Below are positions 620 to 4,337 of a DNA stretch of 4,337 nt, in pieces. Under the pieces are notes generated by a model. It was not told where the DNA came from and searched no databases. It was given only the letters and a program-made list of their open reading frames with translations. The first letter of the stretch is position 1, and every line of letters begins with the position of its first letter. Made by a program: the position numbers and the translations under genes. Source of the stretch: a virus (lineage: Duplodnaviria > Heunggongvirae > Uroviricota > Caudoviricetes); the IMG/VR virus record IMGVR_UViG_2648501165_000001. The stretch is one strand, 5' to 3'.

Positions 620-1108
620 TCAACATTTCGCANNNNNNNNNNTACTCATTCTCCTGATTTCCCAGAGCACACGAGGAATACCACCGTTTCCGACCGGATC
701 GCGTTTACTCCGCAGGGCGACGCTTGATTCCGCCCAGCTTTTTCTTGGAGGAAGCTCTTTCACACGAACAAAACCAGCTGCGCGAAGAGATGCTCCTGAT
801 TCATCTGCCTGGGTGTACGTAATACAACGTTGATAACCCATAGCTTTTGCTGCCCGCCAGACAGCACCATAAAGCGCGCTGTTAGCGTTGCGTTCTCCTG
901 TGGTACATGTGCGATTTACTTCAAGCGTTAATCCATCGTCCAAATGTCGTGCAACAGGTCGACCAGCTGTCGCCACACCTATCAATTCTCCGGCATTATT
1001 TCTCAGACCAATGCTGAATTTATGCCCCACTGGTGGTTTATTGTGTCGGTGGTGCTGTGCGATAAATTCCTGCGCCGCTTTCAGCGTTATAGGTGAAATG
1101 ACCATCAC
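620..1108 (-). CDS. Conserved phage hypothetical protein, 162 aa, with HHRH motif; possibly GNAT/acyltransferase-like fold; C-terminal end interrupted by an N-run
   Basis: ORF track 620..1108. GTG at 1108..1106 is followed immediately by ATG at 1105..1103 (MMVISPIT...), with AAGGAGGAG upstream (plus 1113..1121). The stop TGA (1107..1105) of the upstream Ea22-like gene overlaps this start region. The C-terminal half (NANSALYGAVWRAAKAMGYQRCITYTQADESGASLRAAGF) resembles the C-terminal motifs of GNAT-fold proteins by eye; this is unverified. The last ~7 codons span the 10-N run, so the true stop and C-terminus are uncertain. Confidence 0.7.
   Translation of the reverse strand: MMVISPITLKAAQEFIAQHHRHNKPPVGHKFSIGLRNNAGELIGVATAGRPVARHLDDGLTLEVNRTCTTGERNANSALYGAVWRAAKAMGYQRCITYTQADESGASLRAAGFVRVKELPPRKSWAESSVALRSKRDPVGNGGIPRVLWEIRRMSXXXXAKC
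634..643. other. Run of 10 ambiguous bases (N); assembly gap or masked bases
   Basis: Literal nnnnnnnnnn in the sequence at 634..643, inside the 3' end of the 620..1108 CDS. Confidence 0.95.
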
Positions 1109-1698
1109 TCAGACTCCTCCTTGATGCCAGCGGCGCTTGCTGATTCTTCATATGCGCGTTTAGCAGCGTTAAGGATTGCTGCCAGTGGCGTATAGCCGCC
1201 ATCCATTCGGATTGTGTTGTGGATGCCAGCCATTGTGTCGCGCAATTTGCTGTGGCTAGCAGACAGTTCTGCTATGCGCTTACTTCCATCCGCGATTACT
1301 CCCTCGTAATACTCGCGTTGCTCGTTGAGTTTTGATTTTGCTTCCTCAAGCTCAACACGCAGTTTCCCTACCGTTAGCGCAATATCCTCGTTCTCCTGGT
1401 CGCGGCGTTTGATGTATTGCTGGTTTCTTTCCAGCTCATCCAGCAGCGCCAAGACGGTAGCCGGATTGGCTGCGGCGATGAATTCAGCATTGGCCTGCTG
1501 TTCCATTTGGAAATCTTCATCGAAACCGCTTTCAGGATGCGCTCCTTCAATTCTGCAAATGGGAATATATCCAGCAGCCTCGCGATGAATTAGTGCATCA
1601 TCACCATCAAATCGGCTCTCTCCATATTCGAGAGACCACTCACCACACGTTGCTTTTTCTGCCTTTTCACGCAGTACCTGATAGTCAATCTTGCTCAC
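1105..1698 (-). CDS. Ead/Ea22-like family protein, paralog A (197 aa from GTG start)
   Basis: The ORF track gives 1105..1731 starting at an ATG with no ribosome-binding site. I prefer GTG at 1698..1696, which has a perfect AGGAGG (plus 1705..1710) 6 nt upstream and forms a GTGA overlap with the stop of the upstream gene. The N-terminus [21 protein letters not shown]... followed by a coiled-coil-like region (LALLDELERNQQYIKRRDQENEDIALTVGKLRVELEEAKSKLNEQ) fits the lambdoid Ead/Ea22-like family as I remember it. Confidence 0.75.
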   Translation of the reverse strand: MSKIDYQVLREKAEKATCGEWSLEYGESRFDGDDALIHREAAGYIPICRIEGAHPESGFDEDFQMEQQANAEFIAAANPATVLALLDELERNQQYIKRRDQENEDIALTVGKLRVELEEAKSKLNEQREYYEGVIADGSKRIAELSASHSKLRDTMAGIHNTIRMDGGYTPLAAILNAAKRAYEESASAAGIKEESE

Positions 1699-1715
1699 TG
1701 GTTTCCTCCTTTGCG
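1661..1715 (-). repeat. Gene-junction direct repeat, copy 1 (~49-bp core 1667..1715)
   Basis: Minus-strand reading: cgcaaaggaggaaaccagtgagcaagattgactatcaggtactgcgtga. It matches copy 2 at 46 of 49 positions and contains the RKGGNQ* codons, AGGAGG and GTG start. Confidence 0.85.
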
Positions 1716-2324
1716 AATCTGTTCCGCCCATTCTTCAAGGGATTTCTCCGCATATTCACCAGACAGGCCATCAATCGGATGCGCTTCATTAGCCAACTCT
1801 TCTTTCGCTGACAAAATCATGCGTGTAACGTCGAAAACTTCACGCAAAGACTTATTGATAAATCCGTGATTGAAAGCAGCAGCAAGACGGCTTGCGGTAT
1901 AGTTAATACCCTCGTTGCGAGCCGCCGCACGAATTTCAGCCAGGAAAGCGTCGGTGGCTGGGGTTTCCGTGAAGTTGTCCTCCCAACCGTAGTACTCCTG
2001 ACGACAGAAGTTATTAAATTCCTTCTCCGACTGTTTAAGCTCCGCATTCTCTGCCGCCAGCACCGAAAACTTCTCGTGTGCCAACTTAACAGCCGCATCA
2101 GCCTGCTTAATTGACTCAATCGCTTTCTGTTGGTCTTCGGCCAGCTCCGCTAAATTAGCCTCCAGTTCGGCTATGCGTTCGTTTAATGCATCTCGTTCAT
2201 CCAGTAGCGCCAGCACAACCTGAGGTGTGACTTTCATACGAAATGCCAGCAATTTTTGAGGCGTTGCTACTGTTTCAATTGCTACTGCCGCCTCACGCAG
2301 TGCCTGATAGTCAATTTTGCTCAC
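1695..2324 (-). CDS. Ead/Ea22-like family protein, paralog B (209 aa), mosaic, coiled-coil rich
   Basis: ORF track 1695..2324. The start is GTG at 2324..2322 with AGGAGG (plus 2331..2336) 6 nt upstream; an in-frame TGA lies 15 codons upstream with no alternative start. N-terminus [13 protein letters not shown] is near-identical to paralog A and shares the internal motif VLALLDE(R/L); the rest is divergent and heptad-like ([27 protein letters not shown]). It ends ...RKGGNQ*, with the stop overlapping the GTG of paralog A. Confidence 0.72.
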
Positions 2325-2341
2325 TGGTTGCCTCCTTTGCG
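2287..2341 (-). repeat. Gene-junction direct repeat, copy 2 (~49-bp core 2293..2341)
   Basis: Minus-strand reading: cgcaaaggaggcaaccagtgagcaaaattgactatcaggcactgcgtga. Same layout as copy 1: RKGGNQ stop, AGGAGG, 6 nt, GTG, SKIDYQ.LRE. Confidence 0.85.
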
Positions 2342-2498: not shown

Positions 2499-2795
2499 TC
2501 AGTCATTACTGATAGCGCCATAGCGTGAGCGGTAATTACGCAGGCGCGGGTCGATATATTCAGGGAATTTGTCTATTGTCGCTTTTCGCAACGGTCTCAT
2601 TGCTGTTTCGTTTGTTCGGTCCTTCTCCTGTTTTAGCGCGAGTTGTATATCGCGTCGGTACATCCGTTCTGCTTTTGTTTCTGGTGTCAGAGCAAGAAAC
2701 GCGTCGAAATTGTTTTTGATATTTTCCAGCACCTCCGCCTTGGAGCTACCGGAGCAGTTGCGCGGGTCATCCGCACCATACAGAGGCGCTGGCAT
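2499..2795 (-). CDS. Hypothetical protein, 98 aa; sits immediately downstream of the recombination genes
   Basis: ORF track 2499..2795. ATG at 2795..2793 has a weak AAGG about 9 nt upstream and lies 23 bp downstream of the SSB-like gene stop. The gene is co-directional and tightly packed with its neighbours. No recognisable motifs by eye. Confidence 0.6.
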
Positions 2796-2818
2796 AATGG
2801 GAGCCTTATTTTCAGTAA

Positions 2819-3406
2819 TCAGAAAGGAGGGTAATCGTTCTGGCTGTAACCATAATCATCTGCATGATTATGGCTTACGTTTTTAGAGCGATTGTCTTTA
2901 TCTTTGAGGCTGGCAACCATGTTGGCGATAGTTTCTGGTTGCTTGCCTTCTGCCTTTTCTTTAAGGGTTTGACCTGTTTGTGCAATAAACGGGATGCGTA
3001 TTTCCATCTGGTAGCTGTCTGCGCCAGTCTTTTTGTTTGTGGTTAATACTTTCTGGAGCACTAACCCGATTTTCTTTCCATGAAATTCAGGTGCAACAAA
3101 TTTACTGGCGGAAACCATATGTTGCGTTAATTGTCCAATCCCGGCACACCCCATCATGGCGTGAACGACATTTGCGCCAAATTTGTTTTCCGTGCCGTCA
3201 TTTTTCTGAACACAGACGCTAAGATACTGGATTTTACGTCCGTCGTCGGATTCTCCAGAAAACTCAATAAATTTGGCTCCTTTTTCTGATTGCTTGAGTT
3301 CTGCTTCAGTAATGGTAATTATGTGAGCGCCAGTTTCGTTAATAAAACCACCTTGCCCTGCGGTCAGTGCTGCTTCTTCGTTATAAGTAAAAATTACGTT
3401 GCTCAT
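2819..3406 (-). CDS. Putative phage ssDNA-binding protein (cognate partner of Sak4), 195 aa, with an SSB-like C-terminal tail ...DDYGYSQNDYPPF
   Basis: ORF track 2819..3406. Its ATG (3406..3404) overlaps the Sak4-like stop in an ATGA arrangement, with AAGGAA upstream. The C-terminus is acidic/aromatic and ends in P-F, like the partner-binding tails of bacterial SSB (DDDIPF) and T7 gp2.5. Adjacency to a Sak4-like ATPase mirrors the HK620 Sak4/SSB pair. The SSB assignment is an inference; the N-terminal region is not a canonical SSB by eye. Confidence 0.65.
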   Translation of the reverse strand: MSNVIFTYNEEAALTAGQGGFINETGAHIITITEAELKQSEKGAKFIEFSGESDDGRKIQYLSVCVQKNDGTENKFGANVVHAMMGCAGIGQLTQHMVSASKFVAPEFHGKKIGLVLQKVLTTNKKTGADSYQMEIRIPFIAQTGQTLKEKAEGKQPETIANMVASLKDKDNRSKNVSHNHADDYGYSQNDYPPF

Positions 3407-4083
3407 GCGGCGTTTTCCTTAATTTGATGAACATTATTGATGCCGTAGTAATCACAAACAGTGGCATCGACGAAAGAGAGATCGTTATCAATCTCATTGG
3501 AATCAAACATTCCCATTGGGGATTTAACAGTGTCTGCACCGTTGTTTTTCGTGGTGAAAAAGAACTGGTCATCGCGGGTAAGAGTGCGAAGAACTATAGT
3601 AAACATGCCTTCGACAGTGATTTTCTCGTCCAGCATTTTGCCGATAGTCTTCATTTTCACGCGCCCCATAGGGGTTTCTTCGGTGTGCGCAAGAAAATAG
3701 ACTCTCAGGTCATCAGGCGCATCCTGTGCAGCCTTAATGACCTCCCATGCGTGGCGGCCTATCTCAGTAAATTTATCAAACGATTTTTCTTCTGAGCGGC
3801 GCATAAACTCATTGCTCATCACATACTGGAAGTCATCAACAATAACGATTCTTTTTCCGTATTCGTGAGCACGCTTAATTACAGCAACTATTACGTCCCA
3901 TTTGTCAGTGGTAACTACGGTTCCTTTTTTTGCTCTGGCATCCCATGCAAGCCAGTTTTTTGATTTAAATGGTAGCGGCTTGCCTATTGGTTTTATAAGT
4001 ATTGCTTCCTCTGGATTGATATTTCTCATGCTGGTTGATTTTCCGGTGCCAGACTCACCGAGTATTAATATCGCAGTTCCCAT
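3403..4083 (-). CDS. Sak4-like (AAA_24-type, RecA-core) P-loop ATPase; phage recombination protein, 226 aa
   Basis: ORF track 3403..4083. GAGGTGA Shine-Dalgarno (plus 4087..4093) lies 3 nt upstream of ATG 4083..4081 and overlaps the stop of the upstream small gene. Walker A GESGTGKST is at residues 9-17 and a Walker B-like hydrophobic run RIVIVDD follows. Size and motif layout are typical of phage Sak4/AAA_24 proteins. Confidence 0.85.
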   Translation of the reverse strand: MGTAILILGESGTGKSTSMRNINPEEAILIKPIGKPLPFKSKNWLAWDARAKKGTVVTTDKWDVIVAVIKRAHEYGKRIVIVDDFQYVMSNEFMRRSEEKSFDKFTEIGRHAWEVIKAAQDAPDDLRVYFLAHTEETPMGRVKMKTIGKMLDEKITVEGMFTIVLRTLTRDDQFFFTTKNNGADTVKSPMGMFDSNEIDNDLSFVDATVCDYYGINNVHQIKENAA

Positions 4084-4091
4084 AATTCACC

Positions 4092-4280
4092 TCAGAATGG
4101 TAATTCGGACGGGGAGGGAAGAAATTCGCGCTCATTCATGCGCTCTCTTTGTGCCTGCCATAAGCAAAGTTGTTTCTTTGATTTATCTCCCGCTTTACGC
4201 CAGTAACGAGCCTCAGCAATGTGATACTCTCTTTTTAATCGACTTAACTCTGGGGTTTTCGCCAGTTCTACCGGAATCAT
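4092..4280 (-). CDS. Small basic hypothetical protein (~62 aa)
   Basis: ORF track gives 4092..4292 (MEVKMIPVEL...). The second ATG (4280..4278) has a strong GGAGGT (plus 4285..4290) 5 nt upstream and forms an ATGA overlap with the stop of the partial upstream gene, so I prefer it. Product: MIPVELAKTPELSRLKREYHIAEARYWRKAGDKSKKQLCLWQAQRERMNEREFLPSPSELPF, rich in K and R. Confidence 0.55.
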   Translation of the reverse strand: MIPVELAKTPELSRLKREYHIAEARYWRKAGDKSKKQLCLWQAQRERMNEREFLPSPSELPF

Positions 4281-4337
4281 TTTGACCTCCATTTTCTGTA
4301 GGCTTCTACGGCTTCACGAAACATCTTTTCATCGCCA
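4277..4337 (-). CDS. 3' end of an upstream co-directional gene (C-terminal residues ...GDEKMFREAVEAYRKWRSK*), start beyond the right window edge
   Basis: The minus-strand frame is open from the window edge to TGA at 4279..4277, which overlaps the ATG at 4280 in an ATGA arrangement. This is the same coupling pattern seen throughout the window. Only 20 codons are visible. Confidence 0.45.
   Translation of the reverse strand, partial: GDEKMFREAVEAYRKWRSK

Follow-up and report, generated by a model that had tools for sequence, protein, structure and literature searches.

Two copies of a composite boundary sequence at Ead/Ea22-like gene starts in the early-left region of a lambdoid phage

Why does nearly the same 49-bp segment stand in front of two neighbouring phage genes that resemble each other little beyond it? 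We examined this question in a stretch of 4,337 nt (the window hereafter) from IMG/VR virus record IMGVR_UViG_2648501165_000001 (Caudoviricetes). In this window two genes for Ead/Ea22-like proteins, paralog B (1695-2324, 209 aa) and paralog A (1105-1698, 197 aa), lie in tandem on the minus strand, and both are read from a GTG start inside a copy of one short repeat. The earlier note on this DNA, made from the sequence alone, had proposed that the repeat may be a linker for swapping gene modules by homologous recombination, or a conserved translational-coupling element. Our comparisons indicate that the repeat very probably represents two copies of a composite boundary sequence of the early-left (ea or exo-xis) region of lambdoid/P22-like enterobacterial phages, which would both express the next gene and give homology for gene swaps.

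The two 49-bp segments noticed earlier (1667-1715 and 2293-2341) are indeed alike, with 46/49 positions identical. A repeat search extended the pair to 57 nt (1659-1715 and 2285-2341; 51/57 or 89% identity), and the chance expectation for such a direct pair in 4.3 kb is ∼4.5e-17. In an alignment of 240 nt around each copy the edges of the repeat are sharp and both flanks are unalignable. Copy 1 (CGCAAAGGAGGCAACCAGTGAGCAAAATTGACTATCAGGCACTGCGTGAGGCGGCAG, 2285-2341, minus strand) forms the junction between a DUF2737 gene, which is not Ea22-like, and paralog B; copy 2 (CGCAAAGGAGGAAACCAGTGAGCAAGATTGACTATCAGGTACTGCGTGAAAAGGCAG, 1659-1715, minus strand) forms the junction between paralog B and paralog A. 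Read on the minus strand, each copy contains two separable halves, named U (21 nt) and D (31 nt) here. The U half, CGCAAAGGAGGnAACCAGTGA, carries the peptide tail RKGGNQ, a Shine-Dalgarno (SD) sequence AGGAGG, a 6-nt spacer and a GTGA start/stop overlap. In copy 1 the U half (2321-2341) encodes R-K-G-G-N-Q and the stop, with the SD at 2331-2336, the spacer CAACCA and GTGA at 2321-2324; in copy 2 (1695-1715) the SD is found at 1705-1710, the spacer is AAACCA and GTGA is at 1695-1698. The D half provides the first codons of paralog B in copy 1 (TGAGCAAAATTGACTATCAGGCACTGCGTGA, 2293-2323, minus strand) and of paralog A in copy 2 (TGAGCAAGATTGACTATCAGGTACTGCGTGA, 1667-1697, minus strand). At both copies the upstream frame ends in ...(L/I)RKGGNQ-stop and the downstream frame begins with (M)SKIDYQ(A/V)LRE; the RKGGNQ tail, embedded AGGAGG, GTGA overlap and SKIDYQ.LRE start described previously were thus read in both copies.

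Direct evidence for exchange at the repeat comes from a natural plus/minus pair. The window and the IMG/VR contigs L213 and L220 (100% identical to the window) carry the paralog B unit, and a sister phage, L215, is without it. Identity between L215 and the window is 99.9% from the SSB gene to position 2293 and 99.8% from position 1715 to a run of N in the window, and L215 is short of exactly one 626-bp unit, i.e., paralog B plus one repeat. Where the alignment blocks of the two sides overlap, they share one 49-nt junction. This junction is a chimera: at the first two of the three variable positions it follows the upstream copy, and at the third the downstream copy. Because the L215 junction switches copy across ATTGACTATCAGG, a stretch of 13 nt identical in both copies (2303-2315 in copy 1 and 1677-1689 in copy 2, minus strand), the exchange is placed within these 13 nt. 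We concluded that at least one homologous crossover took place inside the repeat.

The two halves also occur apart. IMG/VR was scanned separately with a U pattern (CGCAAAGGAGGNAACCAGTGA) and a D pattern (the part resembling Sf6 bsq3, described below), with a few mismatches allowed. Among the resulting 207 IMG/VR loci, which were retrieved via the junction itself so that the counts are biased, the halves were joined (J) ∼121 times, U stood alone 69 times and D alone 87 times; the arrangements included U-D with 240-860 bp between the halves, D-J, D-U, U-J and J-J. Where U was found without D, at least nine unrelated families followed, each starting from the same GTG: DUF7739 (99 aa, homologue of Sf6 gene 22), a 74-aa protein, a methyltransferase-like protein, DUF4752, DUF7446, a 181-aa protein, a 214-aa protein, an 87-118-aa protein and a 335-aa PAPS-reductase-domain protein. 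Four of these families gave no match in a Pfam search. The genes that end in a U half encode DUF2737, several small unrelated proteins and many Ea22-like mosaics with a PATDAFLAE...QLRKGGNQ C-terminal region. D without U occurred in at least six other upstream contexts, in some of which the upstream open reading frame (ORF) stops 24-38 nt earlier, so that the AGGAGGCAACCA core is non-coding there. Since the core is kept even where it is non-coding, the data suggest that the RKGGNQ tail is a passenger peptide, gained by whichever gene fuses upstream of a portable initiation region. In this survey the flanking proteins were sorted by N-terminal and C-terminal context, because single linkage merged nearly all Ea22-like proteins through their shared coiled-coil and C-terminal pieces. 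When 224 unique 400-nt contexts, drawn from all loci, were compared in pairs, 2,184 pairs had one flank in common (≥93% identity) with the other at ≤45%, and only 170 pairs had both flanks in common (∼13:1). The similarity switch points range from -25 to +45 relative to the start codon, and conservation drops to background within ∼20 nt upstream and ∼45 nt downstream.

As a control for ascertainment, 80 loci (60 non-redundant) were anchored on abc2, a set limited to close abc2 relatives. The 18-nt core was present downstream of abc2 in 53/60 non-redundant loci, at a distance of 163 to ∼1,130 nt, and core hits numbered 62 in the sense orientation, 0 in antisense and 3 in shuffled sequence. The 62 junctions displayed 21 different combinations of upstream and downstream genes. 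In an all-against-all comparison of this set the junction zones account for 2.2% of the sequence and 9.3% of the endpoints of blocks with ≥90% identity (∼4-fold enrichment), and the adjacent zones at +/-60-130 nt contain almost no block endpoints. In the same set, conservation is 80-99% in the spacer CAACCA and at third codon positions. Together with the halves found joined or apart, the nine or more cargo families and the L215 chimera, the 21 combinations support the proposal of the earlier note that the junction works as a recombination linker.

A truncated form of the D half was observed in four abc2-anchored loci (L227, L255, L273 and L283) with the end of a 214-aa MNNRFYMMC gene. There the D half is cut on the 5' side and fused as ...GAATGACAATTGACTATCAGGCACTGCG, which yields an ATG start and the peptide MTIDYQALR. 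The joint falls at ATTGACTATCAGG, the same stretch as the crossover between L215 and the window.

Is such a junction a new kind of element? In the record of Shigella phage Sf6 (AF547987), positions 19844-19874 (TGAGCAAGATTGACTATCAGGCACTGCGTGA) are annotated as "bsq3; boundary sequence" and constitute the start of the Ea22-like gene 21. Both D halves of the window match Sf6 bsq3 at 30/31 nt each. The Sf6 record numbers its boundary sequences from bsq2 to bsq7; the Sf6 U half sits at the gene 23/22 junction and carries no boundary-sequence annotation, so the annotated bsq covers the D half and not the U half with its SD, stop and start. A complete U+D junction is located between hkaH and hkaG in HK620, and both window copies span a stop/start boundary downstream of abc2 and DUF2737, the same position as in HK620 and Sf6. 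The boundary-sequence concept is said to originate from work on HK620 by Clark, Inwood, Cloutier and Dhillon (J Mol Biol 311:657, 2001). PMC3029335 points to Clark et al. (2001, HK620) and to Susskind and Botstein (1978), describes boundary sequences as short conserved patches at mosaic joints that serve homologous recombination, and states that such sequences are missing from most phage mosaic joints. The window junction has bsq3 identity, non-homologous flanks, a location at an early-left gene boundary and a natural crossover (one event). Its D half sequence, its position at an early-left Ea22-like start and its proposed role all agree with those of the lambdoid boundary sequences, from which the window differs by having two tandem copies around one gene. 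We concluded that the repeat is a duplicated member of the known lambdoid boundary-sequence class and not a new kind of system. The catalogue of U-core cargo, the second boundary block described below and the natural plus/minus-cassette pair are possibly new, as refinements of a known idea.

The host range of the junction appears narrow. BLAST searches detected it in ∼420-450 GenBank records of Escherichia, Shigella and Salmonella phages and in at least 250 of 5,426 complete E. coli genomes, the latter being a lower bound because of the 28-nt exact word that megablast requires. A scan of single genomes, one for each species, returned nine exact core matches, three of them genuine (two in Escherichia and one in a short contig, probably misbinned, of a metagenome-assembled genome (MAG)). 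The other six have unrelated flanks, against ∼4 hits expected by chance, and a single MAG accounts for three of them. The junction appears to be confined to phages of Escherichia, Shigella and Salmonella. In three loci of a Candidatus Hydrogenedentes MAG (L288, L290 and L291) the core is followed by the shared stretch AAAGGAGGTAACCAGTGAGCCG(C/T)AT(T/C)TG(T/C)CG(T/A)GA(A/G)TGCAAGAAAGGAACGCT, which looks like a repeated gene start of that genome, unrelated to the phage junction.

What does the junction do for the gene that follows it? Its start codon overlaps the stop of the upstream gene, and the SD AGGAGG stands 6 nt ahead of that start, among the final codons of the upstream gene. The overlap reads GTGA in 187/190 U-containing junctions and ATGA, at the same position, in the other three. 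From this anatomy we infer that the junction is the translation-initiation region of the downstream gene, and the overlap of stop and start is suggestive of translational coupling. Overlapping genes with coupled translation (ATGA, GTGA or TGATG) likewise have the SD inside the upstream gene and an overlapping stop/start; however, ordinary coupled junctions are specific to one gene pair, whereas the window junction recurs near-verbatim among many unrelated pairs. At the RNA level, an Rfam search of the whole window gave no match at E≤1, the fold z-scores of the junction RNA (+0.23, -0.57, -0.31 and +1.22) indicated no excess structure over shuffled sequences, and no promoter-like or terminator-like sites were found at the junctions. 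On the Rfam search, the z-scores and the site scan we rejected an RNA element, whether a known one, a structured one, an attenuator or a terminator.

These features can be combined into one mechanism, in which each half would belong to the gene adjoining it. The U half would be a portable translation-initiation cassette, into which any upstream gene may read and so gain RKGGNQ, and the D half encodes the conserved first 10-13 codons of Ead/Ea22-like genes. The downstream gene would be expressed from the polycistronic pL transcript, probably by translational coupling. Some 20-50 nt of the junction are common to many otherwise unrelated genes of the region, and this homology patch could support crossover by Sak4, SSB and Abc2 in the window phage, by Red-beta, Erf or RecT in its relatives, or by RecA. 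Such crossovers would reassort whole genes in frame with their expression signals intact; for paralog B, which is bounded by direct repeats, a crossover in ATTGACTATCAGG would delete or insert the 626-bp unit. Reassortment and one crossover are observed among the natural sequences, and the responsible enzyme would presumably be one of those named. In the modular theory of Susskind and Botstein, functional modules are said to be joined by linker sequences, and Martinsohn reportedly described "relaxed" homologous recombination by phage recombinases in 2008. In HK620, experiments identified HkaL as a Sak4 single-strand annealing protein and HkaK as the cognate SSB, and the two anneal single-stranded DNA and support recombineering (PMC5928155), and phage recombinases make mosaics across short, diverged homologies (PMC3945230). 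The window has in common with modular theory and relaxed recombination (De Paepe 2014, PMC3945230) the exchange at short partial homology, the traces of homology at block flanks and a phage annealase module. Modular theory deals with large functional modules, whereas the unit in the window is a single small accessory gene or gene part; the relaxed-recombination experiments used longer substrates and Rad52-like recombinases, whereas the window phage has a patch of ∼20-57 nt and Sak4.

Several points weigh against the composite boundary-sequence reading or limit its reach. Besides the retrieval bias of the 207 loci, the abc2-anchored set is small (60 loci) and covers close abc2 relatives only. 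The upstream genes in that set mostly encode either DUF2737 or proteins that have one C-terminal domain in common, and part of the U half conservation is therefore ordinary protein homology. Since 91% of the regional similarity-block endpoints lie away from the junction, the junction is one hotspot among many. The pattern in L215 would fit either a deletion between direct repeats or an insertion via two crossovers, with no direction favored. GTG initiation and coupling are predicted from the sequence anatomy.

Four other explanations were considered. One is that the repeat is what is left of a simple tandem duplication of one Ea22-like gene, i.e., ordinary paralog conservation; two Ead_Ea22 genes in tandem with the first 13 codons in common speak for it. 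However, identity is 89-94% in the junction and the sequences are unalignable within a few nt on either side; the paralogs are 28% identical over a coiled-coil segment only; and the upstream half of copy 1 belongs to the DUF2737 gene. In other phages the junction flanks many unrelated genes, and A and B are each found apart with other neighbours: B-type bodies, 97-99% identical, occur in L108 and L150 behind a different non-coding upstream region and ahead of other Ea22-like genes, and A-type bodies stand behind at least four different upstream genes. The earlier note had considered that a repeat never seen outside a simple tandem duplication, always between the same neighbours, would be ordinary paralog conservation; this is clearly not so, as the flanks vary across phages. 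With flanking genes that differ across genomes and similarity that is not uniform over the unit, simple tandem duplication was rejected as extremely improbable. Functional convergence, in which unrelated genes independently reached the same optimal coupling sequence with no shared ancestry and no part played by recombination, is hardly more credible, although AGGAGG, a 6-nt spacer and an overlapping stop/start make a near-ideal coupling signal and the RNA is unstructured. A fixed spacer, a fixed flanking CGCAAA and fixed synonymous positions are not what convergence would produce; elsewhere in this operon, junctions solve the problem differently (e.g., ATCAAAGGAGAGTGAnATG); and varied SD and spacer sequences at equal frequency are not the case, the opposite being seen. 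The chimeric L215 junction is a real crossover, and on the strength of this chimera, the other operon junctions and the fixed spacer and synonymous sites independent convergence was rejected.

A site-specific cassette system, with the repeat as the site of a specialized recombinase or nuclease (integron attC-like or a homing site), would agree with genes that are bounded by the same short sequence and are present or absent as units. We consider it as improbable as the tandem duplication: no recombinase or nuclease gene travels with the cassettes and there is no dedicated recombinase among the neighbouring genes, the junction is without an inverted repeat or hairpin and folds no better than shuffled controls, the switch points spread over ∼70 nt with no fixed position, and the halves segregate independently. 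The missing inverted repeat, the lack of structure and the spread of switch points led us to reject it. More serious, though still unlikely in our estimate, is the idea of an adaptive linker, a junction kept by second-order selection for module exchange, like the linker sequences of Susskind and Botstein, with its translational role secondary. It can point to nucleotide conservation beyond the needs of SD and peptide (the spacer and third codon positions at 80-99%), to a core kept even where it is non-coding, to a second, different block that does the same job at Ea22-like 3' ends and to discordant flanks ∼13 times commoner than concordant ones. On the other side, frequent recombination alone homogenizes and spreads a sequence, with no selection for it needed, and the block holds a near-ideal initiation region and a conserved N-terminal helix, both under ordinary selection; most phage mosaic joints are without such sequences, according to PMC3029335. 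Because frequent exchange itself homogenizes the block, the conservation of spacer and synonymous sites fits either cause, and the present data do not separate cause from consequence. In the composite boundary-sequence reading that we favor, the translational role of the junction and that of the N-terminal peptide may account for its conservation, and no claim is made that it is kept up for recombination.

Outside the junction, paralogs A and B can be aligned over part of the coiled coil only (28% identity). Paralog A is a full-length Ead/Ea22-like protein by Pfam (PF13935, E 1.4e-39; 136.2 bits, above the gathering score; profile positions 1-138 of 139). In paralog B the Ead_Ea22 match is partial (residues 25-93; PF13935, 42.1 bits with a cut-off of 27) and covers profile positions 57-114 only; by Pfam, the coiled-coil core of the family is present and the N-terminal domain of the family is missing. 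In single-sequence AlphaFold models of both proteins the junction encodes a short N-terminal helix, and a long confident helix spans residues 34-115 of B and 79-165 of A, the remainder being of low confidence. Paralog B had been described earlier as mostly coiled coil; this did not hold, as the model contains a lone long helix at ∼34-115 followed by a separate C-terminal region at 116-209 (low-confidence model). At its C-terminal end B has a PATDAFLAE...EQIRKGGNQ region. The gene starts in a D half and ends in a U half, which makes it a double-ended cassette. Such cassettes are a minority, with RKGGNQ ends in 11/159 distinct D-initiated proteins. Sequence searches of the PDB gave no significant match for either paralog.

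The mosaic structure of Ea22-like genes extends below the whole gene. Paralog B matched eight partial PHROG families and paralog A 16, which is consistent with sub-gene mosaicism. Similarity-block endpoints also cluster inside the Ea22-like genes, at ∼1326-1350, 1426-1475, 1926-1975, 2026-2050 and 2176-2225, and an NPATVLALLDE/VVLALLDE motif is among the notable endpoint sites there. We concluded that Ea22-like genes are sub-gene mosaics in which several short conserved islands act as joints. The published plan of Ea22 proteins has a short common N-terminal segment, a central coiled coil with the Ead_Ea22 signature and interchangeable C-terminal domains (PMC10834534). Paralogs A and B fit this plan of the mosaic ea22 genes of lambda and Stx phages, and the endpoint clusters agree with the published protein-level mosaicism (PMC10834534); that work deals with the protein level, and the nucleotide junction, the SD/GTGA anatomy and the use by non-Ea22 genes are not described there. 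In the record of Escherichia phage TL-2011a (L002, JQ011316; locus 4143-4732) paralog A is annotated from an internal ATG only, as a 402-nt coding sequence with a gap after B, and its GTG start is unused. The TL-2011a junction has 70 nt aligned to the 71 nt of the window (95.8% identity), which points to an indel or a sequencing error in that record.

The 3' ends of Ea22-like genes carry a second, different boundary block. Its canonical form is GGCATTCGCATCAAAGGAGAG[TGA]nATG, within a longer stretch ...GCTGGCATTCGCATCAAAGGAGAG[TGA]nATG, and it encodes the peptide AGIRIKGE-stop with an embedded SD. This block ends most Ea22-like genes and is followed by at least eight different genes. In the window a variant, GCTGGCATCAAGGAGGAGTCTGAG-TGA-TG (1103-1131, minus strand), closes paralog A; it has an embedded SD, and its stop overlaps the start of the Mom-like gene. 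The canonical block is found at L213 8156-8186 and in many abc2-anchored loci, and in L213 it also ends the Mom-like gene, a non-Ea22 gene. One could go further and propose that the U core, the D half and this second block (…GGCATTCGCATCAAAGGAGAG-TGA-nATG) form a universal in-frame adaptor set for the ea region of enterobacterial temperate phages, a recombinase-independent gene-cassette array kept by selection for evolvability. We regard this as a speculative extension that is probably not correct as a whole. If it were true, each adaptor would carry the ribosome-binding site and start of the next gene, and the accessory genes or sub-gene domains so bounded could be exchanged by phage annealases and still be expressed. 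This view of the system as a whole, with the nine or more unrelated U-core cargo families, may not have been catalogued before.

All genes of the window are on the minus strand. Escherichia phage TL-2011a, which comes from an O103:H25 enterohaemorrhagic E. coli strain, is 99.7% identical to the window, and the gene order of the window is that of the HK620 early-left operon; the locus is thus the early-left region of a TL-2011a/HK620-like phage. Directly upstream of the junctions, as identified by Pfam, PHROG and HK620 synteny, lies an HK620-type Sak4-SSB-Abc2 recombination module (2499-4083), made up of a Sak4-like annealase (3403-4083; Pfam AAA_24; PHROG 2872, E 1.5e-108), the cognate SSB (2819-3406; PHROG 743) and the Abc2 anti-RecBCD protein (2499-2795; PF11043; PHROG 656). 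An hkaM-like small gene (4092-4292) precedes this module, and the DUF2737 gene, a homologue of HK620 hkaI (2321-2491; PF10930, E 2e-30), follows it and has its 3' end inside junction copy 1. Beyond paralog A are the Mom-like gene (620-1105) and a DUF551 gene (2-601). A 34-nt direct repeat with 74% identity (96-129 and 132-165) inside the DUF551-domain gene is probably an internal peptide repeat or a chance match. A run of 10 N at 641-650 stands for 193 bp found in L213, L220 and TL-2011a. The Mom-like gene has its 3' end in this hidden stretch, which also holds the second boundary block and the larger part of a 63-aa hkaF-like ORF (MNGQISIVRPGACDD...); the ORF at 620-1108 is therefore artificially fused across the gap. 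The recombinase region of L215 (3486-4734, corresponding to window ∼3408-4031) has a divergent 218-aa Sak4 allele and then an extra 206-aa ORF between sak4 and ssb, with flanks 99-100% identical to the window. The extra ORF had no match in a Pfam search, and its GRIDNNGNYEPSNCEW motif may resemble those of phage homing endonucleases.

An old debate concerns the origin of phage mosaicism, which may lie in homologous exchange at short conserved linkers or in illegitimate recombination with selection afterwards. The natural before/after pair described here, with the window, L213 and L220 on one side and L215 on the other, records the gain or loss of a whole gene by crossover in 13 nt of a 49-bp boundary sequence, and it is concrete evidence for the homologous-linker route at one locus. 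The junction also explains the routine misannotation of Ea22-like genes, with their GTG starts and fused or split ORFs, and the splitting of these genes into many partial families in profile libraries. For engineering accessory genes into lambdoid phages, the junction is a natural landing pad with built-in expression signals.

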